Source of the DNA: Geosiphon pyriformis uo1
Taxonomy: Eukaryota; Fungi; Glomeromycota
Assembly: GCA_016748015.1 (NCBI GenBank)
Contig: JAAOMT010000512.1
Span: 1,870,893 to 1,934,892, forward strand
Direction: 5' to 3'
Length of the DNA stretch: 64,000 bases
In this document: piece after piece, positions 18,194-64,000 of the stretch
Layout of the letters: the number at the start of each line of letters is the position of its first letter
Numbering within the stretch: the stretch's first letter is position 1
Made by a program: the position numbers and the translations under genes
Notes under the pieces: model-generated
Told to the model about the DNA's origin: nothing
Database searches by the model: none
Seen by the model: the letters and a program-made list of their open reading frames with translations, nothing else

Positions 18194-18206
18194 TCAATCA
18201 AAAGAA

Positions 18207-18215: not shown

Positions 18216-18217
18216 AC

Positions 18218-25037: not shown

Positions 25038-25693
25038 CTATTGAGTTCTATCAAGATCTCCTAATTCTAATTCTTTATCTTTGAGTATTTCTTGAATTTT
25101 TTTTTCAAGAATTACTTGTGCTATCTTGTTCTGTAATTCTTCAAATTGAGCATTTGTTATTTTTCTCATCTGATTAATGGTAATAGAGTTCATTTCTGGA
25201 TTGAGTAAGATTTCTGGTTGATCTTGAAATCCAGTATGTAGCCAATAGATGGTTCTTGCTTGTATGGTCAAATTGTTTTTTCTCACAAAATGTTTTAGTT
25301 GTTGTAGTATTGTTGTGTCAAATAATCGTTTTGTTTTATCTGTGTATAAACTCTTAATGTTTATGTGTTGTCTCAAGTAAAAATAACAAAAGTTTCTTGG
25401 AAATTGTTGTATCCACCAATTCCAAGTTTTTATAGTCAACTCTTGATATTGTGTGACTTTTGGTTATGTTTCTATTACCAATTTTACTTTTGAAATTATT
25501 TTGTCAACAGTGTTTTCTGTATTTTTTCTTATTTTATCCTATGGTCTTCTTCTGATGTGTGTGTATCTGATAGTTTGTTAGTTGATTGTAATTTCCATCT
25601 CTTGTTGTTGGATCAGTTGAAAGAGTTGTTGTGCTAGTGAGTAGATGCTGTCAGTAATTTCTATTTTCTGTTGTCTTTTGTTATGTATATCAT
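25038..25693 (-). pseudogene. ORF3 of element C
   Basis: ORF 25038-25439 (WNWWIQQFPRNFCYFYL...ITNAQFEELQ...DLDRTQ) is highly similar to ORF3 of A. Confidence 0.85.
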
Positions 25694-25719
25694 GTCTTTA
25701 TATATTCTTTTGGTTGTTC

Positions 25720-28700
25720 AATTTTATGTGTTCAGTCCACTGATTATAATTGGTTCTTGATTTTCTAGAATCTTATCTGGTTTGACTAGTATTCTCTGTA
25801 CCCTTAATTGTGGAATATTACTGGTGGATGATAATACTATATAATAATATTGTTTCAGTTGATTACTATGTGCTGCCTTGGTTAAGATTTTGTTGTTCAA
25901 CCTTAATTTATAAGCTTCATTTCCAAGAATTTTTTCTATGTGAAATGGTCCATCCTATTTGGGATCAAATTTTTCACTCCATTGTTTTTCCGTTTTAGTA
26001 TGATGCAAAAGTACTTTGTCTCCAATCTTGAATTCAACTGGTTTCTCTGGTAGTTGGTTATCATGTCTTTTTTTTTGTTTTTTTTGTAACTTTTGAATGT
26101 TATTAGCTGCTTTTCACCATGTGTTTTCTAGTGTCTTCATTAAGTTATATGTTTTTCTCAACAGTGTTTTTTGAAAATTATCTTCTGTTATTGGTTTTGT
26201 TGGATATGTCTTGACTTCTATCTCAACTGGTAATGTTGTTGTTCTACCATATACTAATTCAAATAGTGTTGCTTGTGTAGTGTCTTGTTTCATTGTCCAA
26301 TAAGCAAATAATACTGATGGTATAATCAAATCCCATTTGTCCTGGTTTTCTTGGCTGATTTTGACAATGGCTTCACACAATGTTCTGTTAAATTTTTTAA
26401 CTAGTCTATTTGTTTATAAATGGTATGGTAATAATAATGGTCTTTTTATCCCAAATCTTTAACTCAATTCTGTTAATGTTCTATTCACAAAGTGAGTTTT
26501 TTGATCCGATAACAATTTTTTTGAACATCCATGTCAATAAATCAAGTCTTGATAAATGAATTTGGCAATGGATTTTGCATTTGTCTTTTGAATGGCTTTT
26601 GCTTCTGGCCATTTTGTGAAATAATTTATGGCTATTGCAATATATTTGTTGCTTCTGCTGGTGATTGTTAATGGTCTAACTAAGTCAATTCCAATGCAAT
26701 CGAATAGTTGTCTCACTTTGATTGGTCTCAATGGTTTACTGGGTTTTGTTCCTCCTCTAACAAGCATCACAATTTTGAACATATTGGATGATGTCTGGAT
26801 ATATTGATAACTAATAGTATCTTTTTCTGATTCTTTCCATGGTTGCTTCTTTATGAAAATGTTTTGCTGTTGGATCTGAGTGCATGTTGAATAATATTGT
26901 CTCTTTTTCTGGTTTTGTAATTACTCTGATTGGTTAATCTGGATTCTTTCTGTTTTTCCAGTAAAGTATATTTTAGTGGTTAATAAAATATTTTGATTGT
27001 TGTTTTATGTTGTTTTGTTTCTTTTGAAATAATTTCTTCTTAAACAATTGAGTATTTATATAATGTTGAAGTTGTTAATTTTTTTGTATATTCATTTTTT
27101 ATTATATTTTTGGGTTGAAATGTTTTTAAATTTGTCTCATTCATAACAGACCATCAGCATTTCTATTGTCTTTTCCTTTTTTATAATATACTGTATAATT
27201 AAATGGTGAAAGTTTTATTTTTCATCTGGCATGATAATTATCTCCAAATTTTTGTTTCTGGATTGAAGTCAATCCTTTGTGATTAGTGTACACATCAAAC
27301 TTTTAACTCAAATATTTTTTCCATTTGATAACAGCCCAATAGATAACTAAGTATTCTAGTGCTGGAGTTCCATAGTTCTTTTCTGCTGAACTTAAGCTTT
27401 TACTGATATAAACTACTGAATGTTCTCTTCCATCTGGTCCTCTCTATGATAGTATTGCTTCCAATGCTTGGCCTGATGCATTGGTGGTAATGATGAATGG
27501 TTTGCTGTAATCTGGATACATCAACATTGAAGCTTGGATAAGCTTTCTTCTTAATGTGTCAAACACTTTTTGTTGAGCTTCTGTCTATTTGTACTTTACA
27601 TTTTTGGTTTGTAGATAATGAAATGGCTGAGCCAGTTTAAAAAAGTCCTTGATAAAGCAGCAATAATAGCCTACAAATCTCAAAAATGCTCTTAGTTCTA
27701 TCAAGTTGGTTGGTACTGAAAAGTTTTTTACTATTGCAATCTTGTCTGAATCTGTTTTGATATTATCTTTGCTTACAACATGTCCCAAAAATTTGAGTTC
27801 TGTTTTTCCAAAAAAACATTTGTTTGTATTCAACTTCAATCCTGCTTTTTTTAATCTTTCAAACACTTGTTGAAGATAATGTAAATGATCATTAAATGTC
27901 TTGAAGAACACATTTGTGTTGTCTAAGTAAACAACTACAGATTTTTACAGTAGTCCAGTATAAATAATTTTCATGAGCCATTGGAATGTGGCTGGAGCAT
28001 TCATCAATCCAAATAGCATTACTTCGAATTCAAAATTTCCTTCTCAAGTTGTAAACACTGTCTTTTTTTTATCCTCTGGTTTTATAGCTACTTATCAGTA
28101 ACCACTGTCTAAGTCTAATGTTGAGAACCATTTCTTTTCTTCAAAAGCATCAAACAATTCTTGGATCTTTGGAGTCAGATAGCTATCTTCTTTGGTCACT
28201 TCATTTAGTTTCTGGTAATTCACACAAAAGCAGATTTTTCCATTTTTCTTATGGACTAGTACTACTGGTAATGACTATGGACTTATTAATGGTTGAATTA
28301 ACCTGTTGTCAAACATCTGATTGATTTCTTGATGAATGATTTCATGGCTGGCTAGTGGTATCCTGTATGCTTTTTGTTTTATTGGCATTATATCTTCAGT
28401 CTTAATCTGATGTTGAATTATGTCAGTTTTGCCAAATTCATTTTTGCTGGCAAAGATGTCATTGAAGTTATTGAGTAATATTTTGAGTTGTATACATTGT
28501 AGTAAATCTAGATTTTTCAAGTTTATTTGTTTTAATTGTTCTGGTTGGAACAGATAACATTCTTCTTATTTATATATTGTCTGAGATGTAATATTCACAT
28601 ATCCACATAGTTGTGAAAAATCTGGAATAGTGTTTGGTAATTGTTCTTCAATTTTGGTAGTTAAATATCCAATAATAGTTTTTTCCAGTATCTTGATAAT

Positions 28701-31700
28701 GTCTCCTGTGTAGTTATAAATGGGAATTTTAATGTGGTTGTGGTTTTTGGCTGGTATGTGTAAATTAACTAATTTAATCTTTTCTGATTCACAAAAGGTT
28801 GCTTCTGCTTCAAAAATTTAAACCTAATCCTTCACTTTTCTCTCTATGGTTACCATATACTGGTCATATGACGAAATAGAAATTGGTTAACATGTAAAGA
28901 TAATTTCTCTCTTGTTAACAATTTCTTTCTCTGTCATATTGACTGGTACATCTATTCTACCTGTGGATCCAAATCCCTGTATCTTTCTAACTGTAATCCC
29001 TAATTTTTCTCTGTTTCCCACTAATACTAGTTAAGCTATTTTCACTAGAAGCAGAAATATTGTCTGTGTTATCTTTTCATTTGGTTCTATGATATAGGTT
29101 TTTACTGAATTATTTTATAGCATAGCAATAATATTTTCTACATATCCTGTGTCAATTATCCCTTCTCTGATGTTGATTCTCTTTTTTACTAAACTACTTC
29201 TGGATGCTAATTGAACCATAATTGTTGCTGGAATTTGCAGTGCTATTTTGAGATTGATGCAGGTGCATGAATGTGGTTCCAATTTAATGATATCTCTTCC
29301 TGGATACCTCAGATCAAATCCTGCATCAGTATTATGTACATATTCTGACATGATATTCTTATTGTTATTGCTAAACCATTTTAGTTTCTGCTTTTTGGTA
29401 AGGTCTGAAAGCACAATATATTGTTTGTAGTTTATATTGGAGTTTAAATCTGGGTTTAAATTATTGTTGTTATTATGGCCATATTGAGTGGAACTGGAAC
29501 TGTTGTTTTCATTGTCATCATTGTTAGAGTTTGAATCAGAATTGAACTTTGATTCCAATTCTGATGCACAGCTGCTAATTGGTTCTTCCTCTTTTGAGAT
29601 TGTGTAGATCATGCATGGTGGTGGATTATAAATAAGATCACACTCATTACAATATTGAAATCACATGAAATTAAACAGTAATCATATAGTCGGATATTTA
29701 TTTGAGCCAAATACTGCTCTTGTTCCTCTCTTGTTAGTGCCAAATTTTGTTAATGCTCATGAAATTCTTTTGGATCTGCTTTCAGATCCAGGAAAGCATT
29801 TGAGTTGAGGATCAGAACAATGTTGACTGGTTCTGGAGAGTTGTTCTTGATTTCCAATATTTCACTGGGCATAGTGTCTTTTACTTTGGCATTTGCCATC
29901 TGCCAAATCTCATTCTTGTTGTGTGGATAACCATCCAAGCAAGAGATCACATGGTGCCAGATGACAGTTATTGGCATATCACAACTTATCCAATTGCTAA
30001 TAAGGATCGTGTATTGACATAAAGTGTCACACATTCCTTCTCAACCAGGAATGTCATTTTACATTCTTTCATCAAGCAGTTGTTCACTATAAGCAAGGCA
30101 TAGTTTATTGTCCCACTTGCTTTGTTTTTTTTGATAGCCATAGCATTCGCAGTAACAAGGCTTGCAATAGTAATGGATTTATGTCCAGTAATCTTCATCT
30201 GATACAACCTAAGCTCTTATGAAAGACAATTTTTTTTTGCAGTCTTTGCACCTAAGGGGAATATAAGGTGGTTCTGACCTGGTATCTGTTGAGTATGTAC
30301 TTCCCTAACTGCTTGTTATGGTGGTGTCATTGGTTTTTTTAGGTATGGTTTTCTCCTTTTTTTTCCCTTTTCTTTTGTCTTTTTTTTCCCAGTCTAGAAT
30401 CAGTGACATTTTATTTTGATTATTGTTATTCCATGTGTTTTGATCAATTCTCCAGATAAGTTTTTCTGTGCACTTTTTTTTTTCTTGTTTGTTTTATGAA
30501 AGTATTGGTGATAGCTTGTTGTGGTTCTCATCAGCTCACAAGACTTGATAGGCTTTCCAAAGAGATTTGCTTACTTCTTTCTCGAGTTTTATTAATGGTG
30601 CTGGCACATTAGTGGTTTTAAAATGACTGCATGTTGCTAGTGCTTGTGTGTATTGGCCATTTTGGCTGATTTGCAATTTTTGAGTAGTCTAATTAAGTGT
30701 CATGTTGGTTTTGGACAGCCAATCATTTCCTATTAGAGCTTGATATTGGATGGCTTCCATAACTAATACTTTGATTGATATGATGATGTCATTGACCTCT
30801 ATAGGAAGGTCACCAATCAGGGTTTTGGTCACTCTATTAGCAGTAATTATGTGCATACTGGCAATGTGATCAACTTGACAATCTAATTGGTCCATGAGAT
30901 GTTGTGTAATGATGCTGCCAGCTAATCTACTGTCTAGAATTAGTTTGATGACATGACCATTAACTTTTATATTAGTGTACATGGCAGTAATTGGTTTGGT
31001 GTTAAGAGTGGCTCCACTAAATAATAGGACTAGTGTGGTTTCTTCTAGTTCAAAAGAAAAAATAACTGCTAGAGATTTGTTATTAGAAATAGTTGCTGGT
31101 AAAATATTACTGGTAAGTGGTTAATTCTGGTTAGATTCTGGATTGTTGGATGGGGTGCCTTCTGGAATAACCAGAAGACTTAAATAGTTCTGGAAATTCA
31201 AATTTTGGACATGGCTGGTGCCCAAATTCTAGTGACAAGATCTTGATTGTTGGGCTGATAAACTGGAGATCAGTTGGTGAATTATTATTGCTGATTTCCA
31301 GTTTTGTTGTGTCATTCTTGGCCTGTGTGTTCCATTTTAAGGTAAGTTTTGTGGCAGTGTTTGAATTTGTTGGAGTTGATAGATTACTGGTGGCTGTGGT
31401 TGATATATTACTTGTGGCTGTGGCTGATAAATTGGAGTTTAATATACTGGTGGTTAATAGATTGGCTGCTGCATTATTGGCAGGTATGTAGGTTGATATT
31501 GATTTTGGTTTAAGTAAGGATTCGGGTTTGAAACTGGCAATTGGGGTTTCTGTATTGATTTTCTGATCATTGGTTTTTATTATTAAATTGGCAGTCAATT
31601 TTTAGATGGTCTTGTCTTCTATAGTTGTGGCAAACATGTATTTCTGGCTGTCACAACTGATTGGATGATAATGGTTGTGACTGATGTTGGAAATGATTCA

Positions 31701-34323
31701 CATTTTCTTGGTTACTGCATCATTGTGGGGGTTGATAAACTGCCTGATTATTGCTAGTTAAGTATCTCTCTAGTTTTTGATTAATTGAATTACTGAATTG
31801 TTTCAATTTGGAATCCAATTCAGATGATCTATTTATTACTAGATTTATGGCTTGGATGTGGTTGGCTTCTAACTCAGCTAACTTAAAGTCTCTGGTATGT
31901 GTAACTGTGTCTTAAAGAATGGCTGCATGTAATGGATGTATGTGTTGTAAAATGCTACTACACAGACCACAAATGAACTGATTCAAGATTTGTGGTTCTG
32001 TGAAATAGTTGGTGTTAATTGCTTGAATTTGGCACAGATTTTGCTGGAAACATCTCAAGTAAGTGGTAACTGCTTCAGTATCTTCCTGTTTAATGGTGGT
32101 GAAGATATTGGCCAAGCAATTAATGCTATTATTATTACTAAAATATTTTAAGAATTCAAGTTTGAATTCTTGGAAGGTTTGTGGTCTAGCTGCTAAACTC
32201 TGATACCATATATTAGCAGTATCTTGGAGAAAGTAAGAAATCACTTGAAGGGCTCTGTTGTTATCCCAATTATTGGCAGTAATGGCTTTGGCAACGTCAT
32301 TGATCTATGCTTAAGCATTGTCTTCTTTATCAGTGAATTTCTTAAGTTTGGCAATTGGAGCATAGGCCATTAAATTCATGTTTTGTTGTTGAGGTGGTTG
32401 TTGCAGTGGTTGTGGTTGTTAAAGAGGTTGTTGAATTAGTTGAATTAGTTGTAGAGGCTCAGTTATTGGATTAATCAGTGGCTGATTGATGATGATTATT
32501 GGAAGTATATTTGGTTGATTAATTAATTTAGAGTTTGGATTATTCTGATTTTTTAATGGTAGAATATTTGGAGTTTTGACTTCCAGATTTTCTAAATTTG
32601 GATTTTGTTGAGTCTGAAAGTTTGGGGTTTCAATGTCCAGGTTTTCTGGAATTAAATTCTGGTAAGTAAATTTCTGATTTTTGGTTTCTTCTTTTTCTTC
32701 CTTTTTTGATTCTGTTACCTCCTATGGATCAGCTGTTTCAAAATCTGGTGAAGGTGGCAGTAATCAGTATCCTGATGGGATGGTTGATTATGATTTAAAT
32801 CTTTCAAAATAATTACCATAAATTCCTAATAACTCTGCTTTTTTTTGTTTACTTTGAAATTGGAGTCGTTCAAATGTTGATGTCACATTTGATGTGGACA
32901 TGCCTGTTGATGAGATGTTGATGGCACTTCCAAATGTATAATGGTATGATGGGTTTGTTGGTAATTCAACTCTGGTTTTCTTCCATGTGGGTGGTTGGAT
33001 CTCTTTTGGTGTCACTGTTGGTGTTTGTACTCTTCCTTTGCTTTTGTCTATGTAGGTGATGAGGAATTGTTGTTGAGTATATCTTTTAATGGTTTAATTG
33101 ATTTTTCTGATGATTGGTGCAAAACTGTAGTTTCTTGGTAAGCTGGTATGTTGAAACAATTCCATATAGAAATTTTTTTTTGCAGTGTTACCAGATGAAA
33201 TTAAAGATATTGCTTAGTATGAAATTACCCTTATAATTCTTATCATTTCAAATTATCACTTATTACATTAACAAAATATCCGAAATTATCATTTAATTAA
33301 TAACCCAATTTGTACATAACACAAATGTAACCTAATTGCGATGATCAATCATGCAATACTCCAAACTATATAACATTCAAAAAGTTTGCCAAAATTTGTA
33401 GAAATTCACCAAAATAATTGATAGTTCACTGAAATATCTAATAGTTTACAGAAATAACTTGTAGTTTGCCAAAATGTATCTTTGATTCAGTGAAATTATA
33501 GAAAAGAGCAAAGTTCAAGTTCATAGAATAGTGTTATGACAAGTTGTATAAAAGAAAAGCTTCTCTCTTCGAGAAAATGTATCTTACTTTAGATTTATTA
33601 CTTAGAACTATTCCTACACACACAAAAAAAAATAAATATCAAATAAATTTGAAAAACCAAATTCTTTAATTATTGCTTAGAAAATCTCCAAAAACCCAAT
33701 TAACATTTTGAAATTGATTAGCTACCAATTTCAATAAACTGTTAGTGACTCCAGGCCTGGATAGAAAACGTTTTCCTTGACAGAATTCAATTTCTTTTAC
33801 ATTTTTTTTATTTTTTTTTTCTTTTCTTATTACAATCATTAGAGTAGCCTACAGACAAGATTTCTGTAGAAGAGTTGACTTTTACAGTAAAGTAACTACA
33901 CATTTTTAGTGAGCTTTCAGATGAGCAATTCCTGGGAAAGAGTTGACATTTACTACAACATAACTACATAAAGTAACTGGCAAAAAATTGGCTATTCCAC
34001 TATAAGCTCAGCAGTTCAAATTATAGGAGATAATTTGAAGATAAATTCAGTTATTGGAGGTTCAACTATTTCTAGAAAACGTAAATTTGCAACCAACAGA
34101 CATTTACAACATTCAAGAAAAGAGACCAAAAACCTCTGGTAACAGCAGATTCAATGTTAACTGTTTCTCCTAAGCAGTCTGTGATTTTATTATTGATGTA
34201 GAAATTAAAGGCTGATTCTGTTAGGAAATGGTTATTGTTTAATTCCAATTGTTGGCTGTATTGTTGAAACAAGGATTTGGTGAATCCTAAATGATTTGCT
34301 TCTATGATTTCTGATTTTGCCAC
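25720..34323 (-). pseudogene. gag-pol remnant of element C (interrupted by a solo LTR at 33186-34144)
   Basis: Gag 31912-32244, PR ILDSRLAGS 30689-30982, dUTPase DAGFDL/SRSS/IIDTGY 29115-29612, RT 27585-28520, IN 26114-26782. Confidence 0.9.
33186..34144 (+). mobile_element. Solo LTR of the B family inserted in the gag 5' end of C
   Basis: TGTTACCAG...CTGGTAACA, perfect TSD GCAG (33182-33185/34145-34148); reverse-complement homologue of 407-1368. Confidence 0.92.
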
Positions 34324-34385
34324 TTTTAGATAATTGTTGTTGGTGCTGGTTCTTTGTAGGATTATATTTCACAGGAAGCACCAAT

Positions 34386-35217
34386 TGTTACAAGTAATTA
34401 TTTGAGGTCTCAAATCAAATAATAAATTTGTAACTTGGTGCTTGAGTAGTATTCTGGTATGTTGATATCTGAAGGTTTTGTTATGGAGTTTTTTGTATAA
34501 TAGACAGAAATATAATTGGTTGTTTTTATCTATAGCTTCTCGAAACCACAGTTTCATCAATTTCTTTCTCAGCATAATAGCCAGTAATTCTTCTGGTAAG
34601 CTATCCTCAATTCTAAGTGTCTACTTTTATTCCTGGGTCTTTTACCAGTGCTATATTCTGACATCAGTATCTTTGTGCATAAATCTTTTTAATTCAGTTA
34701 GTAATATACAAAAGAAATAACAACAGAAAATAAAATGAAATAAAAGAAATAAACCAAGGCAATAGTTGTTAGTATTCTGTCAATAGCCATAATTAAGAGC
34801 TATTATTCTAGTATGGTTAAGTATTCAAGACTATCAATATAAAGTGTTGATAATAGAGAGTAGATTGAAATATCAAATAACTTTTTATTAATATTTGTGA
34901 ATTGGAAGGTTGCTTAAATTAAATCTAAATTGAGAGATCTGTTTTTCTACTTTTAATACTACCACTATATATACATAATTGAGATTCCTTAATTTCTCAA
35001 TTCTTCATACCAGAAATCTTGGAATTCCTGGAATCTTGCAATTTCTTTAAGAAGAATCCTGGAATTCTGGAATCCTGTGATTCCTTGTATAAGAATTCTG
35101 AAATTCCTGGAATCCTGCAATTCTTTTGAAAGGAATTCTAGAATTTCACATTTACTATGGCTATTTCTGATTGGCTAATTTATATGCTAATATACTTCCT
35201 ATATTCTATGAGTAATA
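34386..35217 (-). repeat. 5' LTR of element C
   Basis: Matches 23133-23178 + 24239-25020; the PBS is adjacent. Confidence 0.92.
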
Positions 35218-38200
35218 TTATTAAACTTTAATAAAATAAAATTAAAATTCTAAAATTTACAATATATTAAATTTTAAATATATATTGTTTTATTTTAAAA
35301 AATTTACATATTTAAATAATTATAATATTATTAAATTTTATATTAACAAATTATAATTAAGTTTAATTTTAATTATTATTATTATTATTATTATTTTGTA
35401 ATTTATAATTTAAGTATTTAACAAGTATTTTGTAATTTGTAATTTAATTATTTAATAAGTATTTTGTAATTTATAATTTAATTGTTTTAATATTTACAAT
35501 TTTGTAAACTTAATATATATTATTATTAATTTTGTAAAATAATTTTACAAAATAATTTTTTGTTTTTTACATTAATAAGTAAACTAAATAATAATAACAC
35601 TAATAATAATAATATAAAAATAAATAATATTAACATAAATAAACAATATTTAATAGAAAAAATTTATTATTTTATTAAAATAACAATATAAATTTAAATA
35701 ATATAAACACAATTTCAAAAATTTTTAAAATTAAAATTAAATAAATAATTACAAAATCTTTAAAAATTAATTTTAATATTATCATTAATAATTTAAGTGC
35801 TTTTTTTCTCTTTTTTTTAAAATTAAAGTTAATATTTTTATTATAAAGTTATTGTATTAAATATTAAGCTTTTTACAATTGGTAATAATTTTTTTAAAAA
35901 AAAATTAAAAATAATTAAGAATATGTTTTTAAATATAAATAGTTTTAAAAAAGTTTTTACCTTCTTAAAATTTGATAAAATTATTTATGTTATTTTTACA
36001 TATAAATTAATAATGTTAAAAACTGTGAATTTAACAAATATTAACAATATAATAGTAAACATTAATTTTAAAAATAATTAATTAATTATATAACTCAAAT
36101 TGTAATACTTAAAAAAAAATCTTATTAGAACTTTTTTTAAAGCTATATATATTGTATTGTCTAAATTTGACAATATTAAATTAATTAAAATATTAATAAA
36201 ATTATAATAAAAAGCATTAGTGAAATTTAAAAATCAAGCTTAAATTAATTTTTTTATATTTAAATAATTTATTCTAATTAGTAAAAATATAATTTATATA
36301 ACTAAATCAATATTAATAAGTTATTATAAAATATTAAAATATTTATTGAATTTTGTTTTATATTTTGTTAAATAAATATTATTGTACATAATTTGTAAAT
36401 TTTTCTAAAATTAATTAATAAAAAAACTTGTATAATTAATTATTATTATATTATATATGTTTATACAAAATATATTATTGTTTGTTTTAAATTTAAAAAA
36501 ATATAATATAAATTTTGATTATAGTTTTAGTTTTTAAAAACATTAATTTAAATTAAATTAAGTTAAATTTGCTTAAATATTCTTTTTGTAAAAATTTTGA
36601 TCATATTATATTAATATGTAATTTAAATACAATTTTATCTTTAAGAATTAAAACCAGAAAATCATTTTTAAATTTTAATAAAAGTAGTTTAACAGCTATT
36701 TATACCAAAAAATCAGCTTTTATTACTTGTTTAATGTTTTTAAAAGTAAATTTTAGATCCAAATTACAAGTAATAATTATTTTAATATTTTTTTGGTTTG
36801 TTTTTTAGTAGTTTTTTATTTATAAATACTTAATTTTTTTTATTATTTAATATTTTTATTTTTTTGTTGTAATTACTGGTTTAAATTTAATTATAAATAA
36901 TTTTTTTGTATTTTTATTATTAATTTTATTTAATAATATTAATAATTTCTTATTTCTAAATATAAGCAATAATAATAATAATATTTTTAAACTTAATAGT
37001 TTCAAAATTAATATGTTAAAACCTAAAAACTCTATAGAAACTGTTTTTATAAAACTAATTATTTGTGTATTAATTCGGTTTTCTCTTTTTTTCTATTTTT
37101 AATATTAAAATTAATTTAAAAAATGGCTATATACAATATTTAAAATATAAATAATTTAATTTTTATAGTTGTAGAAACAAAATTAAAAGATTAAATTAAA
37201 CTTTAAATAAAAAATAACTTTAATAATATATATATTTTTATATTTGGTTTAGATATTAGTTATTTAAACTATAATATTACAATTAGTATAAACAATAATC
37301 TAATTTATTATTTTTATAAAATTTTTAAAATAGTTAATTAATTTTTGTTAAGATTACTATTATTATAAGTAAAAGTTTTGAGATTTATAAAGTTTTTATA
37401 ACTTAATATTAAGATTAGTTGTTGCTATAATTTAAAATTTTTTTAAATATTTGGTTTAAAAGTTTTTTGTATAATAAACAAAAATTCAATATAATAATAA
37501 ATAATACTTAATATTTAATTTTTTTGGTATAATAATTGGTTTATTCTAATATTTACACTTTTTTAATAAACAATTCTAGTTTTTATAACTATATTTATAT
37601 TTTTTCTTGGTATTTTTTACTAAATAATTTTTAATATTATAATTTTAGTGTTTTTTTTAATTAATTAGTAAAATAAAACAAACATAAAAAGAAGCAATAA
37701 TAAAAATAAAAATTCGTATTTTATTAATAATTATAATTAAAAACTATTGTTTTAATGATATTAAATATATAATATTAATTTAAATAAGTTAAATTTTAAT
37801 AAATAAAACTTTTTTTTATCCCAAATTTCCAAAAAAGAGTTAAATTTTTGAAAGAAGTTTTTTTTGTTTTATATTTATTATTTATCAAGAAATAAATCTT
37901 TTCATTGTTAAACTGTTGTTAAAAAAAAACCAGTTAAAGTTATAACTTTGGGCTTTTTTAATAAAAGCTTAGCTCAAAAACAAAAAGTATCTTTGGGTAA
38001 TATTAAGCATTTTAACAATAAAACAAATATAAGTTTTTATAGAATTAAGCAGATAATTAATTAGTTTGCTAAAATAAATACAGATAAAGAAATATCAGTA
38101 ATTTTTTTTGTAAATATTAAAGGTAGTTATAAAGTTAATAGTAAAAATAAAAGTTACTTTAATTCAAAAATAAATACTTTAAAGACCAAAAAAATTAATA

Positions 38201-47549: not shown

Positions 47550-49202
47550 ATGGGGGATAAAAGAGATAATTTTTCAAAAATTTCCCCGCTAATTAAACGG
47601 TGGGACGTTTTCAAGAACAAAAGTGATAGAGATATATCCCGTGAAACCGTTGATGATAAACCGAACTCGAAGTCATTCATCGAAGGGGAAGAAGAGGATC
47701 AACCTTTATGTAAAATTGTCAATAGTAAAAGCCGAAAAAAGAAGCGGAGAAGCCGAGTCAAGTCCGCAAAATTGTATAATGTAATTCAAATGGTAGTGGA
47801 AGAAAAAGAGGGTAAATCTTAAAAAAAAAGCTTTAAACAAAATCAGAATAACTTGAAAAAGCCTCCAGTGTCACCTGATGGAAATGAGTCTCATATTTTA
47901 ATAAAAAAAGAAGAGGAGGACATACCTCTGAAAGAAATTTTCAACCAAAAAAAACAAAAGCTAAACCAGGGCAATCCGAAAAAGATTTCAGGGATATCTA
48001 CTAAAAATCGGACTCACATTCTAAAAGACGAGGATCAACCGTTAAGCAAAAGAGTCAAACAAAAAAGGGGAAAGATTTCAATAGAAGAGAGTCCTTTGAA
48101 AAGTAATGTGGAATCAGTGATTGGGACAACTTACGTTTCTAGTCTTCAGTCTCTTAATGAGATGCTGAAAATAAAAAAAATGTCCTTAATTGAAGGAAAT
48201 GTCGGTATGGAACATTCAATCTCGGTAAATAACTTGCTTAGGAATACTGTGGAAGATGGAAAACCTATATTGAATTTTAATGAAGAACCAAAGGTTAGCA
48301 GCTCAATGACCAGTACGATTCAGATAGTAGAAGATGCGAATCAAGATGAGGATCAACCTCTGTATGAACTACTCAAAGAAAAACGAAAAAGGCATCAAAC
48401 GGAAGATAGTGCTGAAGAATTGGAAAAAGTATCGCGTAATAGTCGTACAATATATCACGTTAAGAAAAGAAGACATTGGTCAAAAGAAGATGAAGATAAA
48501 TTAATCACCGGAGTTGGAGAGTACGGTAAAAACCAAATGGAAAAAATTGCACGCGAGTACTTTGGCAACCAAAGGACCATAAAAAGCTTGGGGGCACATT
48601 GGTATGAAATGGAGCATCCAGAATGCGCAAACAAAAAGAGGGAGGTGACAGCTAAAGGTAATCGGAAAGAGAGAAATGATCGATACTGGTCTCAAGAAGA
48701 TATTTACAAACTTCGCACTGTGGCAAAAGAGTTTAAAAATCAATGGAAAACAATATCCAAGAAATATTTTGCCAAAACAAGAAGTCCGAAATCTCTTTGT
48801 TCAAAATGGTATAGGTTACAAAATCCTGTGGAAGCGAGACCTTGGACCGAGGAACAGGATAAGCGTTTAGAAAAGTTGGTAATGAAATATGGAGTAGAAA
48901 GGTGGAAAAAGATGGTAAATCTTTTTCCTGGAAGAAACTCGGACCAATTATACAACCGATGGGACGTCTTTTGCCAAGAGAAGGCCAGACCATGGCCAGA
49001 AGAAGAGAGAAAGAAGTTATTGAGTTTAGTGGAGGTTTATGGAAAAGACCGGAAGCGAATTTCCCAAGAAATCTCCCGTACCCCAAAACGAATAGCTATT
49101 TTTTATGAAAAGTTGGAATCCCAAATTGGATGGCCACTAGTGAAATTATTTGGAAGTCATAATAGTAAATATAAAGTCATCTATTCAATTAGATCGAATT
49201 AA
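47550..49202 (+). CDS. Myb/SANT-repeat DNA-binding protein (4 repeats) with a long basic/acidic N-terminus
   Basis: Repeats HWSKEDEDKL..., YWSQEDIYKL..., PWTEEQDKRL...GRNSDQLYNRW and PWPEEERKKL. ORFs 47550 and 47853 are in frame and separated by one TAA (possible intron 47781-47846). Confidence 0.85.
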
Positions 49203-49817: not shown

Positions 49818-51925
49818 TTATTCCCCCATAGCCACGACTCCTTCGTTATTTTTCCCAGCAGATTCCACACTGGAATCACTGGAGTCACTTGAAGTCTCGA
49901 CGTCCGACTCCAAATAGAGATTAATAGATTCATCATAATTAGAGATTGGCGGAAGATTTTGGCTTCCTTCTGGGCGCATTGAATTTAATAAATTTGTGGA
50001 TTGATTACTTTTAGGCTCCAATGGAAAACTCTTCCTTCCTTTCGGTAGGCTTGGCTGTGAATTCAACGGAATTCTTGGTTCTTGATGATTATTATTTGCT
50101 GGTAATGAAATTTGTGGGATATTGGTCTGGGAAATAAATTTTTTAGTGTTGTATGGATCTATGTTATCAAAAAATGTGGCTTTATGTCTCTCGGGAATAG
50201 TTTGAGGAGATTGAGCATATCTGAGAAAACTATGAGTATTATCCAGTATTACTCCTCTTTGGGGAGAGAAATCTTGTGGATAAGAGGTCGTTAAATTGGT
50301 TAGGGAATTGGGTGCAAATTTCTCTTGTGAGGAGACAAATTGATTAGATTGAATTTTCAGCTCACTACCCTTTGTGTTAGTGATACCCCCCTCTAGCTGA
50401 TTTTCCCTTATTTGATAGGCTTTTGATGTTCTAAGGTTTATATGCTCAGGTGATTGAGTTTTTGACTGCCTAAAGTTCTTTGCAGCAACCTGTGAGTGTC
50501 TGATTTCGGTGATCACAGTTGATAATGGCCCTGTTACTGGAATGAGTCTTCCCTCATCTTGTCCTATTTGACGAGAATTATTTTTCCTTGCCTTATTCTT
50601 TGAAGAAGCTGGAAGTTGCCTAACTAAGGGAGTCAATTCAAGCAGTTTAGGTTTATTGAATAGTGTATGATGAGATTGATGAGATTGACTCTTCACATAT
50701 GTAAGGCCCTCATTTGAATTCGATCCTGAGATATTTCTCATGACTTCATTCGGAGCGATTAATTGACAAGTAATATGACGTGTTGGCTCAGATTTATATT
50801 GAGGATAAATTTCTTCCACTTCATCAGATCCTGACGAATCAGATTCTATCTCAATTGGATTTTCAAAAGTCCCAATATTAGTAGGAGTCTTATTTTGAGA
50901 GATGGTCCCTAAACCCATCTCCACTTGATTGATTAGGGGAACACATATTGGAGCCTGACCAGGAATAAAACTCTTATGTAAATTTTTGCGATTAATCCAG
51001 CTTTCTAGACGATAATTCAAATGTAGCACTGCTAAAGGTCTATCTTCGTCAACCGTATCCAGAGTTGAGATTCCAGTATTATGAGTGAACACTTCGATCG
51101 GCTCTTCTTGAAAAATAGTAGTGATCTCTACTCCATCGTGAATATAACCGTTTGTTTCTTCGATCCCAGCTTGTTTTAAATCAAAATATCCCATGCCTTC
51201 ATTGTTAATTTTATTCTTGACTGCTTGATAAAAATAAACGGATACTGCGCCCACGCCACCATTTCCTGAATAAATAAAATGGTTTTCTAGCCCACTGTTT
51301 CGAAAAATCCTGGCAAAGTGGAAAGTATAAAATTTTCTACGGTCTGAACTTCGAAACCCACCACGAATCACTGGTTCTGGTTCAAAGAATTCGTGATATC
51401 GGTTGTCATTTTTACCATCCACATAAAGATATGCCTTTATTGGATCATTCTTACTCGCGATACATGCATTGAATTTTACCCCATAATTCAGGAATCCTTG
51501 GGCGAGGTTGAAGGCTTCTATTGGCACCGCAGCATATACATTTGCCCCACTTTCATAAGAGAGATAAAAAGTCAATTGAAAAAATTAATAGTTAAATTTG
51601 GGCTCTTCACTATGTCAAAACAAATTAAAACATTCATGAAACAGTATTTAAAACACATCATAAAAATGATCATACCTTAATCGACGCCCATTAAAACAAT
51701 ACGCGTCTTTAATATATGATGGGCCAGTGGAATAAAACTGAAGAATACATATACATACAAAAGGATTATCTATTTTAAACTCGCCTTCTCCGTGATAATC
51801 GTGTTAAGGAAATAGGTGAGAAAAAAGTTCTTTGAGCTAACCTCACAATCATCACGAGTTTCTGTATATTCAGGAATTGGTCGGCCATTTACCAAGATAC
51901 AAAGTTCAAAATCGCCAAGATGCAT
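49818..51925 (-). CDS. Uncharacterised fungal protein (N-terminal beta-rich domain, DUF7918-like; disordered C-terminus), 3 exons
   Basis: Exons 51925-51842 (MHLGDFELCILVNGRPIPEY...), 51737-51676 and 51549-49818 join in frame with GT-AG introns. The family name is from recall of the ILVNGxPxPEY/YVDG/LxYR pattern and is not verified. Confidence 0.75.
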
Positions 51926-52692: not shown

Positions 52693-54120
52693 TCACCAAG
52701 TCGGATTTTTTCCATTTGTACTCGGACTTTTCCCTTCTTTATTTTCTTTAGCTTCAATTTCGTTCTCCAGATCTCGGCTCAATAGATCATCAAAACTCTC
52801 ATACAATGATTCCATTTGTAAAATATTTGGGATCTGTATGGCACCATAATCTGATCTTTCACCATCGCCCTTTGTTAATAATTGATTGGTTTCAGATAAC
52901 ATAACTGGCATCGAGAATCGACGTTCGACTGAAGTGGTAACCGTAGTACGAGTAAATGTACCAGCTGCTCCGGTCGGCTCGTTTACATTTCCCCTATAAG
53001 CCCAAGATCGAGGTCTCGGTCGGTTCGTATGAGAAGTTGAACATTTACTATATGAAGGTGGATTGCTGCTCGGAAATTCTGTAAATTTATCCTGCGTTAC
53101 TTCAATATGGGTTTCATTCTGGAAATTTGTTTGGGAAATGTTTTTGTAATCTTTTTTAGTGATAGTTGTTGGGATTTCTTTTGAATATTTTATTGAGTTC
53201 TCGATATCACCCATTTCGTCTGCCTCAAGATCAGAATCTTGCAATTCATCCCCATCACCATAATGGTAAGAACGATCTGGAGTAGTCTTATTACAACAAG
53301 TATATGTACCAAACATCAATCTAAAGAAAATGGGAACAATAGAAATAAATGCAGCATCCATTATCGTTAACACATTTGTCGTCTCAGAAATAGAATTTTT
53401 TGCAATATGTGGATTCTGATAATATTTTTCCATTATAAAAATGATCATATGTGCCATTCCTACTAATATTCCAGCAAAACCTTGTACGATCCAAAGTTTA
53501 AATTCCATAATTTTCTTTTGTGATTTCCAGAGTTTCCCCAAGAGATAGAAATAAAGTATCCCGTAATATGTAATTAATATTACGTATGCCAGGGTCCAAC
53601 TTGAGCTATGACAACATTCATCCTTAATAATCAAAGAAAGGTTTGATTTTTCACAAGTTTTTTGTGTGATATTCAAAAATATTAGGGTTAACACGCCAGG
53701 GAACAAGTTTAAAAGAATGAGATAAAACGAATGTAGTGGAAATGATGTAATGATTGTCTTTCGTATTAAGGTAAAATATGAATCAAGAAGTGGAACAAAT
53801 GTTGCAGAAAACCAAAGTGGAAATCCGAAAACGAATTGAGCGAGTGAAGAACAAGAAAATCGCAATGGTAACCATGATAAAGAAATGTCGTCGAGGTCAA
53901 GCGTTTTTTCATATTCACTTAATATCCAAATCATTCCACCCACTATCGATAGGAATAAACACCCATAGTCTAAATGATTTTTAGTGATCCCATCATGATT
54001 ATTTTTTTCCTTTGAAGAGAATGTAATATAATATGCCAAAATGATAAATCCAATGATAATACTAAATCCTATGATGTAAGAAAAAACAGAAGCTGTAATG
54101 TCTAGCTCACTAAAAAACAT
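52693..54120 (-). CDS. Seven-transmembrane (GPCR-like) protein with a ~200-aa cytoplasmic tail
   Basis: Intact 475-aa ORF with about seven hydrophobic segments in residues 11-270, Cys residues in the extracellular loops and a Ser/Thr-rich tail. Confidence 0.75.
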   Translation of the reverse strand: MFFSELDITASVFSYIIGFSIIIGFIILAYYITFSSKEKNNHDGITKNHLDYGCLFLSIVGGMIWILSEYEKTLDLDDISLSWLPLRFSCSSLAQFVFGFPLWFSATFVPLLDSYFTLIRKTIITSFPLHSFYLILLNLFPGVLTLIFLNITQKTCEKSNLSLIIKDECCHSSSWTLAYVILITYYGILYFYLLGKLWKSQKKIMEFKLWIVQGFAGILVGMAHMIIFIMEKYYQNPHIAKNSISETTNVLTIMDAAFISIVPIFFRLMFGTYTCCNKTTPDRSYHYGDGDELQDSDLEADEMGDIENSIKYSKEIPTTITKKDYKNISQTNFQNETHIEVTQDKFTEFPSSNPPSYSKCSTSHTNRPRPRSWAYRGNVNEPTGAAGTFTRTTVTTSVERRFSMPVMLSETNQLLTKGDGERSDYGAIQIPNILQMESLYESFDDLLSRDLENEIEAKENKEGKSPSTNGKNPTW

Positions 54121-54145
54121 CTTTTTTGTGGTGGAGTTTATTATT

Positions 54146-54176
54146 ATTGTTGTTGTTGTTGTTGTTGTTGCTGTTG
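54146..54176. repeat. (TTG/CAA)n microsatellite upstream of the 7TM gene
   Basis: Run of ttg units. Confidence 0.9.
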
Positions 54177-54982
54177 AAATTGAATGGATTTTGCTTTTAG
54201 ATCCAAAAAATTATATTTTTACGTGCCAGTTTTCGATCGGCTTTAAAGTCAAAGAGTGTTTATATCAAAATAATATGAAGCTGTAGACTTTTATTTTAGA
54301 AATAAAACTCTTTATTTATAATCGTATCGAAAATTTTACACGGTAAAACAATGGTTCATCACGAGTGATATTCTATACCCGTGAGAAAAATACCATAAAC
54401 TATCACCTTTTTAACGGTCTTCTTCGTTCTATGATTCACGCTTGGAATGTTTTGCCTTTGTTTTTTTTTTGTTTGACATACTCTTGATTTGGGAGGATGA
54501 CCTAGATTACAATGCTTAAAATGTGTCTACATAATAATTACGATGGAAAAACGGACTCTCAAGTTCAATTTCTAAAACTTTAATTATCAATGCCACCATT
54601 TATTTATTTATTTATTTTTTTATTTATTTAAGTGAAATGCAATTCTCCTGTGGAAACTAACCGTACTAAATTTTAAAAAAAATTGTGAATCACGATTTCA
54701 CCGATTTTTGAGAAATTTTGCCTTTATCCTATTTGAGCTAATTTTTTTTTTTCCTAAATTATCCCGATCGATGTCAGGCGAGGGACTTCGTCAAGAATAG
54801 GTTTCAATCAGCCGACGAAAATCTTATCATCGAGCAGACTAACAAATTTTAGAAATTCGTTAGACTATATAAATCTAACATTAATAATCCATTTTTGATT
54901 GATAGATATATTAGTTTGATTGGTCAATGTTTAACATAAATCTTTCTCTTCTAACGTAATATCCTTGCTCCTCTTAAACAAA

Positions 54983-56949: not shown

Positions 56950-59900
56950 TTACAAGCAAGTAAAATTAAAATTAAATTACTAATATAATGTTGATATAAA
57001 TATGGCTTATTTAATTACACTATATAAAATAATAATTTTAAAAAAAAATAAGTATAATATTTTCTTATCAATAATTCTTTATGTAATTTAATTTGTAATA
57101 AAATTTTGAATAAAAAAATTATTTTGTGTTTTGTAATTATCTGTTGTAAAATGTTTTTGTACAATAAAATTTATTTTTAATATTATTATTTGAAAATTTA
57201 TATTATATATAATTTAATTAATTTATATTTTTTAATAATTATATAATATTTACAAACTTTTTTTTTTTTAATTTTATAACTATAATTAAAGCAAAAAATT
57301 ATCTTTTTACTTCTTTTATTATTTAAAGCAGTTAGTAGTTTTTTTATAAATAAAATATTAATAGCTATAAAAACTGTTTAATAATACTTTATAAAAGCAT
57401 TTTTTTTAAATAATATAATAATTATATAGTCTTTTATTGTTCTAAGAATACTTTTTTTATTTTTGGTTAAAAGTTTTTTTTTCAAAGTTTTATTAAAGTA
57501 ACTTATCTAAAATAATTCTAATGTAATTTTTATTTTTTTTAAAAGTCTTAAAGTTTTTTATAAAAAAGTAGTAACTAAATTACTTTTTTTATTTTTATTA
57601 TTATTATTGCTTAAATAGCCAAAAACCAACTTATTTAATTATTTATTATGTTTAATAACAATTTTTTTAAAGTATTAAAAAAAATTTCTGGTGTTTTTAA
57701 TAGTTTTAGTGTTTTAAAATCTGTTTTTTTTCTTGTAAAAATAAAAATTTGGTTTTTTTTGTTTTTTTACTTTTTTATTAGTTTTATATTATTAATATTA
57801 ATTATAATACTTAGTTTTATTATAATTATAGATAAAAATAATTTTTTTGTTTTAAACAATAACAACAAAAACATGTTAACTAATTTTAAAAACAAAACAA
57901 AACATGTTTTTAAATATGTTTTTAATTAATTAGTTTGCCAAATTACTTAATCTTAAAAATATATAAAGCTTTTTTATATAAGATTTGTTTTTTAAGCTTC
58001 TTTAAATAATATATTTTAAGCTAGTTTTACTGATTTGTTTTGTTTTTTATTTTTAAAATTGTTAAATTTTTTATAATATATATTTGTAACTAATATAAAA
58101 ACAATTTTTAATATTTATAATAAAAGTTTTAAAATTTTTTTAAAACTTATTAGTGTTTAAAAATATTTTATTATGTATTTTAAATTTCTTAATATATTTA
58201 ATATATTAATTAATTTTAATAAACAAAAACAATATCAAATTTTTTTTTGTAATATGTTTAAAACTAAATTGATCAATTTTTTTTTAGCTATATAGTTTTT
58301 AAAATTAATAAGCTGGTTTTTAAAATTAGTAATTATATTTGTTATATTTTTTGTTTTTTTAATTCTGTTAAGCAAATTTATTATGTAGTTATTATTTTTG
58401 GTTTTAAAAATAATTTTAATACTGCTGTTATTAAAATTAGTATTTTCAAAAAATATTGTATTTAATAAAAAACATTTAAATATTAATGATGTTTTAAATA
58501 TTAGAATTTTGGTTATTTAGCTTTAAAATATAAAATATATTTTTTTTTAAATCTTTGTTTTAATTAGCTACTTTTTTATTTTTATTTTTATTAGTTTTTT
58601 TGCTANNNNNNNNNNNNNNNNNNNNAATATGTTTTTAATTAATTAGTTTGCCAAATTACTTAATCTTAAAAATATATAAAGCTTTTTTATATAAGATTTG
58701 TTTTTTAAGCTTCTTTAAATAATATATTTTAAGCTAGTTTTACTGATTTGTTTTGTTTTTTATTTTTAAAATTGTTAAATTTTTTATAATATATATTTGT
58801 AACTAATATAAAAACAATTTTTAATATTTATAATAAAAGTTTTAAAATTTTTTTAAAACTTATTAGTGTTTAAAAATATTTTATTATGTATTTTAAATTT
58901 CTTAATATATTTAATATATTAATTAATTTTAATAAACAAAAACAATATCAAATTTTTTTTTGTAATATGTTTAAAACTAAATTGATCAATTTTTTTTTAG
59001 CTATATAGTTTTTAAAATTAATAAGCTGGTTTTTAAAATTAGTAATTATATTTGTTATATTTTTTGTTTTTTTAATTCTGTTAAGCAAATTTATTATGTA
59101 GTTATTATTTTTGGTTTTAAAAATAATTTTAATACTGCTGTTATTAAAATTAGTATTTTCAAAAAATATTGTATTTAATAAAAAACATTTAAATATTAAT
59201 GATGTTTTAAATATTAGAATTTTGGTTATTTAGCTTTAAAATATAAAATATATTTTTTTTTAAATCTTTGTTTTAATTAGCTACTTTTTTATTTTTATTT
59301 TTATTAGTTTTTTTGCTATTGCTTCTATGTTAATCTTTTGATTAGTTTTTGTTTGGTTTTTTTGAAATTTAAATTAAATGCTTTGGTTTTTTTGGTTAAA
59401 TTTATTATTGAACTTATTAATATTTTGGTTGTTTTAATTATTATTTTATTAAATACTTTTTTAGTTTTAAATACAAAACTTAAAAGTATAATTGCTATTG
59501 TTTAAAATAAAAAATTTGTTTTGATAAGATTTTAAATAAAGTTTTAATAATACTTTAAATAAAAATATTTAAATTTAATTATTGGTTTTTTAAAAGTATT
59601 AATCAATTAATATTAAATTAAATATAAATAAAACTACTAAATAGATAAGTAATATTGTTATTAACAATTATATATTAATTAAAATTATACATAAAATGTT
59701 TTTTTAAAGTAGATTTTTCTTTTTAAATTTAACATAAATTAATTTAAATTAGATTTATGTTTAATTATATATAAAAAATATGTGAATTATATTTAATTGT
59801 TGTTATTTAATTTGATTTATTGTATTAAATAATAATTAGATTATATATTAAATAAAAATAATATTTACAATTAAAATTTTAATATATTAATAAATTTAAT

Positions 59901-61812: not shown

Positions 61813-61921
61813 GTAAATCATTTTTTTTTTATAAATTGTTGCTGTGCTATTTCATGATTGGCTAATTTATATTATTTATAATTCCTATTAAATTCTTGAA
61901 CTGTAACATTATCCCCTCCTT

Positions 61922-62635
61922 TCAAGATTGAGCTTTGTCGAAATCGAAGTTAATTTCTTCATTGATTTCTATATTATTGTAATAATCTAATATTGTATTA
62001 TTAATTTGTTGTTGTAAATTTTGAAATTGTAAATTGGTTAATTGCCCAATGCTATTAATTGTTATAAGATTCATAGTTGGATCTAATAGTACTTTGTGAC
62101 AGTTTTCGAAAGTTTTAAAAATTCTGTAAACAGCTTTTATATGAAGTATATTGTTGGTTTTTTCAATAAAACTTTCCAATTGTTGTATCATTGTTTTGCT
62201 GAATACTTTGACTGAATCTTTTGAGTATAATGTTTGTATGTTTAATTGTTTTCCCAATTGGTAATAACAATAATTAATAGGAAGTTTTTCCTTCAGCTGT
62301 TCAAATATACTTGGTGTTAATTTTACTATGTTTATTTCTTCTGTTATCAATGTATTATTCAATGCTATTCCTAAATTTTTAATGGTTTTGTTGATAAAGC
62401 TATTACTGTTTTTGGCAATAGTAGTATATGGTGCAAAACTAGATTTCTTATTTATTGTAGAATTTGGTATCATTTTTCTTTTATATGATATCTCGGAACT
62501 ATTGATTGTAATTTCCAAATCTGAATTTGATTGTTGTAAGCTTCGACATAGTTGTTGGGTTAATTTACTAATGTTTTCTAAAATATATGTCATTGTTTTA
62601 ATTCCTGACTGCTTTTTGGGCTCTTTTGCATGCAT
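61922..62635 (-). CDS. Intact ORF3 of element D (237 aa, unknown function)
   Basis: Uninterrupted ORF between IN and the PPT; motifs LTQQL, LEITIN, NYCYYQLG, AVYRIF..F, SIGQLTNLQFQ and DFDKAQS are shared with A, B and C. Confidence 0.85.
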   Translation of the reverse strand: MHAKEPKKQSGIKTMTYILENISKLTQQLCRSLQQSNSDLEITINSSEISYKRKMIPNSTINKKSSFAPYTTIAKNSNSFINKTIKNLGIALNNTLITEEINIVKLTPSIFEQLKEKLPINYCYYQLGKQLNIQTLYSKDSVKVFSKTMIQQLESFIEKTNNILHIKAVYRIFKTFENCHKVLLDPTMNLITINSIGQLTNLQFQNLQQQINNTILDYYNNIEINEEINFDFDKAQS

Positions 62636-64000
62636 TTTTATGCCTTGTTAACTGTTTTTTGGTGTAATTTAAGATTAATTATCTTTTTATATAATGTTCA
62701 ATTAAAACTACTGGTTTTAAATTTTGCAGAATCTGATCTGGTAATACTAGTGGTATTTGTGTTCCAATTCTAAGTGTTTGTGTTGTTATTACTGGTTTGT
62801 TGTAATATAATTTCAGCCAGTTGTCATGTGCTGCTTTTCTTAAAATTTTCTCATCTAGTCTTAACTTGTATGCTCCATTGCCAAGTATTTTATAAATATA
62901 GAATAGTCCATCCTACTTGTGGTCAAACTTTCCACTCCATTGCTTTTCTGCTTTGGTATGATGCAACAATACTTTGTCTCCTATTTTATAGCTAATTATA
63001 TTATCTGGTAACTGGTTATCATGTCTCACTTTTTGTTGTGCTTGTAATTGTTCAATATTTTAAGTTGCTTTTCTTTTTTTGTTCTCCAAAATTTCCATTA
63101 ACTCATATGTTCTTCTAAGTATTGTTTCATGAAATGTTGTTTCTGTAATAATTTTATTTGGATAAGTTGGAATAGTAAGTTCAATTGGTAATATGATCTT
63201 TTTTCTATAAACCAATTCAAATGGTGTGAATTGTATAGTATTTTGTTTTAATGTTCTATATGCTAATAAAACTACTGGTATGAACAAATCCCATTCTTTT
63301 TTATGTTCACTGCTGATTTTGGCTAATGCTTCACATAGTGTATGGTTAAACTGTTCAACTAATCCATTTGTTTGGAAGTGGTATAGTAATGATAGTGGTC
63401 ATTTAATTCCAAATCTTTGGCTGAGTTCATTTAGTGTACTGTTTATGAAATGTGTCCCTTGGTCTGACAACAATTCTTGTAGACATCTATGGTAGCAAAT
63501 TAAATCTTCATGTACAAAGTAGGCTACAGATATAGCATCAGCTGTTTGAATGGCTCTAGCTTCTGGCCATTTAGTAAAATAATCTACTGCTATTGCAATA
63601 TAATGATTGTTTTTTGCTGTTATTAGTAATGGTCCAACTAAATCAATTTCAATCCTATCAAATAGTTGTTCAACTTTTATGGGTCTTAGTGGTTCTGTTG
63701 TTTTTGTTCCTCCTCTTTGTTGGCATGGATCACAATTTCTTATGTATTAGATAATATCTGAATGCATTTTTGGCCAATAATAACGACTAGTTATATGTTG
63801 AATAGTTGCTTCTTTTCCAAAGTGGTCTGAATGGATATCCAAGTGCATGTTAAATAAAATAGTTTCTTTTTTATTTTCAGTTATAATTCTCAATGGATTA
63901 TCTGGATTTTGTTGATTCTGATAATAAAGTATGTAGTTTTGAATAAAATAATGTTTTGATAATTTCTGGAACTTAATTAGTTCTTTTATTGGTGTATCTT

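Follow-up and report, generated by a model that had tools for sequence, protein, structure and literature searches.

Fungal LTR retrotransposons are usually depicted as gag-pol only (PMC3248453), and LTR elements are given as 41% of the Geosiphon pyriformis genome (PMC11952901). The window analyzed here, a stretch of 64,000 nucleotides of this genome, is an AT-rich pile of such elements surrounding a few host genes. Four of them (A-D) are Ty3/Gypsy elements with LTRs, gag, a pol in the order PR-RT-RH-IN and a PPT. Each has a third open reading frame (ORF3) between integrase and PPT, which raises the question why a third, non-Env gene has been retained in subfamilies too diverged for their LTRs to be aligned, and what its product may do. 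The relevant features are the following.

9443 to 19740, forward strand: element A, inserted within B, with LTRs at 9443 to about 10329 and 18891 to 19740; it encodes gag with a CCHC knuckle, PR, a Cys-rich insert, dUTPase, RT, RH, IN and ORF3
9439 to 9442 and 19741 to 19744: 4-bp TSD of A, GTGT
18218 to 18877, forward strand: ORF3 of A, with ATGs at 18218 and 18248 and two in-frame stops
Reverse strand: element B, containing the nested element A
1349 to 2042, reverse strand: ORF3 of B, with an ATG at 2042, a frame shift near 1985 and four stops
24238 to 35222, reverse strand: element C, with LTRs at 24238 to 25025 and 34431 to 35222
25038 to 25693, reverse strand: ORF3 of C, with three stops and a 1-nt indel close to the start
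Reverse strand: element D, truncated by the window end
62682 to 64000, reverse strand: integrase of D, with rve core, SH3-like region, a 41-aa tail, no chromodomain and four stops
61922 to 62635, reverse strand: ORF3 of D, open, first ATG at 62635 (237 aa)
61922 to 61945, reverse strand: DNA motif before the PPT of D, read as DFDKAQS-stop in D and in a different frame in B-type elements
61912 to 61923, reverse strand: PPT of D, overlapping the ORF3 stop
61908, reverse strand: start (TGTTAC) of the 3' LTR of D

The LTRs of A and C share 72-77% identity across 500+ nt, and those of D and B have only pieces of 33-46 nt in common with other elements, in agreement with the original prediction that the LTRs of A/C, B and D cannot be aligned. 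A chromodomain, the hallmark of chromoviruses, is absent from all four elements: the integrase stops 40-42 aa past the SH3-like region and no chromo family of Pfam is matched. The CpG observed/expected ratio is 0.07-0.27 in the elements vs. 0.84 in the gene region, and the differences within LTR pairs are almost all transitions (66 of 66 and 86 of 90). Strong methylation and deamination have acted on the elements in the past, and the four copies of the window are likely dead.

Element D as a query in tblastn retrieves the ORF3 of A (31% identity, E 3e-30) and of C (30%, E 6e-27), and not that of B. The latter is detected by a profile made without B (1373-1591, iE 3.6e-6) and aligns with B-type Geosiphon gene models over 199 aa with 59% identity in a single frame (1981-1388, E 1e-65), for which reason a heavily frameshifted B was rejected. 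An ORF of 210-240 aa is thus found between integrase and PPT in four of four elements, as had been claimed. The identity of ORF3 amounts to 62-64% between A and C and to 22-34% in the remaining pairs, vs. 68 and 40-56%, respectively, for the C-terminus of integrase; ORF3 thus diverges faster than integrase between lineages with non-aligning LTRs. Of the sequence blocks that had been described as conserved in all four, L(A/T)QQL, EITIN and P-x-N(Y/F)CY belong to A, C and D and do not extend to B, where the B-type counterparts are LSQKL/IFQKL, SITVT/SLTIN and P(P/T)IYRYF. A relative of ORF3 borne by an LTR is absent from the window (best other score 4.5 bits).

In the case of D, the frame runs from stop to stop over 61922-62647 (reverse strand, 241 aa), directly beyond the integrase tail, and its lineage-conserved start is not the ATG at 62635 but the one at 62593 (MTYILENI), giving 223 aa. 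D had been called intact. Its frame is indeed open, but the pol part of D carries four stops in 439 aa, at which rate 223 aa would be free of stops with a probability of 0.13. The open frame is therefore not significant alone and is compatible with chance, and D is likely as dead as A-C.

Whether ORF3 is a gene of its own or a C-terminal extension of Pol depends on the junction with integrase, where each element has a pol stop.

18191 to 18193, forward strand: pol stop of A, TGA, the codon being TGA or TAA among related copies
25718 to 25720, reverse strand: pol stop of C, TGA
62679 to 62681, reverse strand: pol stop of D, TAA, with ORF3 in another frame
2224 to 2226, reverse strand: pol stop of B, TGA

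The stop lies at an equivalent position in all four elements. The spacer from this stop to the first ATG is in frame in A and C (24 nt; eight stop-free codons in A) and out of frame in D (43 nt, or 85 nt to 62593) and B (181 nt). The arrangement in A, with ORF3 in frame past a single conserved stop, would suit a Pol extension that is produced by read-through, as known for the env-like gene of SIRE1, or that belonged to integrase before a sense codon decayed into the stop; in addition, one partial Geosiphon model (P0109) alone extends over the junction and has Leu in place of the stop. Decay was assessed on 814 contig pieces of one DNA run (X1) aligned to the junction; this run is possibly the window's own source and informs on A-like copies only. 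At the A stop codon it has one variant of at least 5%, G>A at 18192 resulting in TAA (25,614 of a summed depth of 92,064, from 41 contigs), and as a control the decayed stops of A at 17930 and 18497 are a sense codon in most copies. Since just TGA or TAA is seen, decay of a sense codon is excluded for A-like copies, and an integrase extension broken by a decayed CGA or TGG codon was rejected. Read-through is contradicted by the frames of D and B: a position in frame behind one stop is found in A and, by inference, in C. Moreover, 72 of the 120 listed Geosiphon models begin at a lineage ATG, integrase motifs are present in 7 of the 120, and six inspected models in which integrase and ORF3 are joined (P0047, P0104, P0113, P0136, P0177, and P0199) all skip the junction or change frame. 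An extension of Pol is therefore very doubtful as a general explanation, while read-through for the A lineage alone is possible. The conserved pol stop, the differing spacers and frames and the models starting at lineage ATGs argue that ORF3 is its own gene, distinct from pol as originally proposed, and we conclude with high confidence that it is a separate gene under selection.

The selection is apparent from the comparison of the copies, with Nei-Gojobori dN/dS values for ORF3 of 0.21 (0.12-0.33) for A-C, 0.46 (0.23-0.71) for A-D and 0.51 (0.28-0.81) for C-D, none of them near 1, and of 0.20-0.26 for integrase (A-C 0.26). Because deamination inflates transitions, the differences were permuted within the same base and neighbor in a spectrum-preserving test of 2000 rounds, using an alignment from DNA only. 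Between A and C, 133 of 208 codons are identical vs. 112.2 +/- 4.3 after permutation (0 of 2000 rounds, z 4.8), three stops are present vs. 10.5 expected, no gap occurs across 624 nt and the mismatches per codon position are 52/33/66; the LTR control yields z 1.8, seven gaps and 38/39/42. For the core, z is 3.2 for D-A and 2.2 for D-C (50 of 2000). A transversion-only test, weaker for its few sites, gives p 0.22 for A-C, 0.03 for A-D and 0.036 for C-D. Purifying selection, as anticipated in the original prediction, is thus supported.

The same data weigh on the reading that the region is a passenger or is maintained just as cis-acting DNA or RNA. The open frame of D, not significant alone, leaves room for it, and so do the last approximately 25 nt before the PPT, which constitute a DNA motif read in differing frames. 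The same bases read DFDGAQY-stop in A, DFDKAQS-stop in D and WILTKLNFKKKIML in the ORF3 frame of B, where DFNKAQF-stop lies outside that frame. The ORF3 of B continues across the PPT and ends inside U3 (1349-1400 of the window, reverse strand), and B-type models likewise pass the PPT into the LTR, ending in TELSLEEEVML. DFDxAQ, which had been listed among the conserved protein blocks, must consequently be given up as such, and the accompanying caveat that the last codons may be constrained as DNA proved justified, with frames differing between lineages. The codon-position bias, stop avoidance and lack of indels between A and C speak against a cis-only or passenger region, as do protein homology down to 21-30% identity and metagenome proteins with open frames of 221-234 aa. 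This reading is highly improbable and largely refuted.

Two word-index searches (125 matches, 120 listed; 25 matches, 20 of them new) yield at least 140 named homologs, all listed ones being Geosiphon pyriformis gene models, to which the window copies show a best identity of 66-92%. Sorted by best match, the 140 models comprise 110 A-like, 15 C-like, nine B-like and five D-like sequences, and the remaining one represents a fifth type. In a tree built from the 34 rows that are nearly complete, with fragments excluded, the lineage groups are separated, although support is rough and branches are long. The ORF3 family spans at least five lineages, and at least 140 'hypothetical proteins' of G. pyriformis are fragments of transposable element genes rather than host genes. 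Additional Geosiphon lineages of ORF3 that are absent from the window are represented by P0123 (aa 154-301) and P0223, and by P0158, P0181, and P0185.

When a mixed profile is run with HMMER against 1.84 billion representatives, it gives 121 matches with E up to 0.001, of which 89 are new; 20 of these, picked for length or divergence, stem from Geosiphon (17) or from unnamed metagenome clusters (3). Two of the latter, P0169 (E 2e-24) with 234 aa and P0172 (E 9e-23) with 230 aa, are complete ORFs that, though just 28-29% identical, retain the B-type ending at the PPT and LTR as ELSLEEEIML or ELNLEEKIML. Because of this ending, they are likely proteins of related elements in other hosts, as far as can be judged from the sequences. 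P0230 (221 aa, 21 members) is borderline with E 9e-4 and about 20% identity end to end, but with an independent profile it reaches 30 bits vs. 0.2 when reversed. At its locus L010, on contigs of 1.6-1.7 kb, no integrase is found within 677 nt upstream and no purine tract past the stop. If P0230 is a true homolog, the family also exists outside the slot between integrase and PPT and would, via this borderline member, link ORFs of transposable elements with unnamed proteins outside retroelements. The ORF upstream of P0230 (L010:3-560) contains a tract rich in Asn as well as the motif YWKLG and matches neither integrase nor Pfam nor the ORF3 profile, and downstream a short inverted repeat (L010 1370-1460) is also present in L011. 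P0222 (1042 aa, seven stretches, best domain 6 bits) was dropped as a false positive. A metagenome scan with ORF3 as a query and viral scans with ORF3, P0230, and P0172 return no loci, and tblastn of P0128 against phages gives no match.

The ORF3 protein is basic (pI 9.0-9.4) and has one to three Cys. The maximal Kyte-Doolittle mean over 19 residues is 0.27-1.05 in five of five sequences, which leaves no TM segment, and the N-terminal maximum over eight residues is 0.77-1.32, indicating no signal peptide by hydropathy (not SignalP). The claim that both are missing thus holds for all five sequences, and the product is predicted to be soluble. That ORF3 would be a degenerate Env or small fusogen is suggested by position and sense orientation only; given the lack of a TM segment or hydrophobic N-terminus in all five sequences, the one to three Cys and the lack of any Env family in the Pfam scans, this is next to impossible, and the non-Env character proposed earlier stands. 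In an alignment of 14 sequences, the 30 columns that are at least 70% conserved consist of hydrophobic residues, G, N, A, Q, T, P and M, plus a single R. Because D, E, H, C and K are all missing from these columns, an enzyme is unlikely.

The chain is predicted to begin with a helix, followed by a hairpin of two strands; a variable, basic linker then leads to a helical core of about 110 aa. Two AlphaFold models, made without diverse homologs, are helical with one N-terminal hairpin (pLDDT 48 and 52, pTM about 0.3). With these poor models, Foldseek finds nothing with E under 0.001 in the PDB or a viral library, and the best VIA-align match (Z 6.7) consists of helical hairpins only and barely covers the core; because of the model quality, such blanks say nothing about the fold. 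Pfam, PHROGs and NCBIfam contain no match at the curated cut-off, just scattered weak ones, so that the libraries searched offer no confident match to a known accessory domain of transposable elements. A sequence search of the PDB with three profiles gives best E values of 0.21, 0.011 (importin-5) and 0.038 (SCIN); with a different best match for each profile, these were taken as chance helical similarities.

One of the weak matches is DUF1016_N (PF17761), the N-terminal domain of the PD-(D/E)XK protein YhcG, which had been named as a lead before the weak matches appeared. ORF3 resembles it weakly over about 60 helical residues (Y[WF]xIG ... R ... F), yet lacks the nuclease domain and has an additional N-terminal helix and hairpin. 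In the Pfam scan P0142 reaches E 0.037 and 14.6 bits, below the cut-off of 32.8; it is the one match among the five ORF3 proteins of that scan, and three other scans have none. Hhalign gives P 0.015 and 0.022 with a probability of 2-3%, falling to 0.1-0.2% with narrower alignments; the signal rose with alignment diversity from P 0.43 to P 0.015. B-type sequences score 9-11 bits where shuffles reach at most 4.8, and for L005 the values are 13.4 vs. 7.2, while D, A-type sequences, P0169, and P0230 lie within the shuffle range, as do seven of eight YhcG sequences. The register of the similarity is constant across four approaches. As presented in PMC1189080, DUF1016_N is mainly helical, with no confident match and no demonstrated function.

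In the Atlas, the top match of P0172 (score 0.94) is an unnamed cluster of 98 members and 190 aa, with Mucoromycota as its commonest phylum, at a recognition of 2186, under the tool's 2300 mark. A likeness to uncharacterized Glomeromycotina proteins had been suggested at the outset; this cluster agrees with it at the level of a lead, but no such family appears among the 20 of 89 HMMER matches whose source was traced.

We propose that ORF3 would be a non-catalytic DNA-binding regulator acting on the LTR of its own element. The protein may have been captured from a non-retroelement gene family, and its DUF1016_N-like helical core would bind nucleic acid. Because spacer length and frame vary between lineages, translation would use a separate ORF3 mRNA, arising by splicing or internal initiation, or else rely on reinitiation. 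Speaking against this, neither a splice site nor an internal promoter was identified. The product would then act in trans on its own element in the nucleus, keeping this element transcribed in a host that methylates it. Mobile elements and retroviruses that encode their own regulators are known, with VANC of VANDAL and Tas of foamy viruses as examples, whose likeness to ORF3 concerns the proposed working mode only. That ORF3 is a non-catalytic nucleic-acid-binding protein is, on its predicted properties, slightly more probable than the opposite; for the whole mechanism, including DNA binding and the LTR as target, we estimate a probability of roughly one in three. The evidence for it includes the CpG depletion and transition-rich LTR differences of the elements, the description of transposable elements in Rhizophagus as methylated and of expressed copies as less so (PMC8647823), and the CCHC knuckle that Gag itself has. 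That ORF3 diverges faster than integrase could be anticipated for accessory genes in general and is no sign of LTR binding. A more specific version, in which ORF3 is a sequence-specific anti-silencing factor with a DUF1016_N-like domain captured from a non-retroviral family that co-evolves with the LTR of each lineage and enabled expansion to a large share of a methylated Archaeosporales genome, is a long shot. If true, it would be the first such factor for a fungal LTR retrotransposon.

Two other roles must be weighed against an LTR regulator. As a cofactor that binds RNA or associates with the particle, ORF3 could assist packaging or export or shield the RNA from small-RNA silencing. The basic, predicted helical protein fits such a role, and the likeness of P0230 (0.92, rank 1) and P0172 (0.93, rank 2) to a closterovirus coat cluster of the Atlas suits RNA binding better. 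However, these matches share 150-156 features, whereas true members of a family typically share 170, no Pfam scan matches the closterovirus coat protein (Closter_coat, PF01785), the viral fold library gives no match (with a poor model) and Gag has a CCHC knuckle of its own, all of which makes this role possible but unlikely. Alternatively, ORF3 could be an integration-targeting cofactor that binds integrase or chromatin in trans and replaces the chromodomain, which is absent from all four integrases, ending as they do shortly beyond the SH3-like region. The TSD of A, GTGT, is compatible with a decayed N-CG-N site. A 4-bp target preference is normally determined by integrase itself, though, no link of ORF3 to integrase was found here, and ORF3 diverges far faster than this supposed partner; we regard targeting as quite doubtful. 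The functions suggested at the outset, a silencing suppressor, an integration-targeting factor or a transactivator, are thus all candidates. On weak evidence, the LTR regulator thus ranks before the RNA or particle cofactor, the targeting cofactor and read-through. Should ORF3 be a regulator or silencing suppressor, it would provide a testable reason for the expansion of LTR elements and a small protein to test it with; without a function, it is another uncharacterized additional ORF.

The slot itself is known from other systems. ORF3 corresponds to the sense additional ORFs between pol and 3' LTR of plant LTR retrotransposons (aORF-3S), for which accessory roles have been proposed (PMC7264820): it is a sense ORF between the pol stop and the 3' LTR, present in all four elements and under purifying selection, similar to the plant ORFs described as present in most copies with conservation near pol. 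In the portion of that review considered here, the sense ORFs are env-like, some with a TM segment, whereas ORF3 is fungal and soluble by prediction (the comparison being via Pfam only), and the nuclear examples, Grande GENE23 and PvRetro13, are antisense whereas ORF3 is sense (PMC7264820). The retrovirus-like LTR retrotransposons of bdelloid rotifers likewise bear a dUTPase and a non-Env third ORF, of types common to other mobile elements (PMC5408684). Those described there are GDSL esterases, DEDDy exonucleases or TM proteins, from which the Geosiphon ORF3 differs, with no Pfam match to GDSL or DEDDy and no conserved D, E or H. For fungal Gypsy elements, the survey by Novikova et al. (2010, PMC2864245) marks an 'additional ORF of unknown function', a likeness by description only; its table is without Glomeromycotina, and elements A-D are without a chromodomain. 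No description of this ORF3 family was found in the literature searched, which was without supplements and most subscription papers. While the kind of slot is known, the protein family that ORF3 represents is new.

Several further observations concern the elements and their surroundings. A dUTPase lies between PR and RT in A (14516-14908, forward strand) and C (29118-29660, reverse strand), as in PosPlaTy3-5 of Postia (PMC2864245). In the interval between PR and dUTPase, both carry an insert of about 290 aa that is rich in Cys and includes several CxxC motifs (A 13619-14500, forward strand; C about 29660-30250, reverse strand), which has no match in a Pfam scan. The PBS of A (10334-10350, forward strand) starts TGGTGCTCC, which we presume to resemble the 3' end of tRNA-Ile(UAU). 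An apparently solo LTR of the A/C type, with 76-79% identity, is located at about 23180-23850 (forward strand). The host-gene region shows no CpG depletion and contains a Myb-repeat protein (47823-49202, forward strand), an ORF of 588 aa without a Pfam family (49818-51584, reverse strand) and a cytochrome b561-like ORF under the Pfam cut-off (52693-54210, reverse strand). Finally, 57913-58605 and 58626-59300 are an identical duplication with a period of 713 nt flanking a gap of 20 N, which is likely an assembly overlap.
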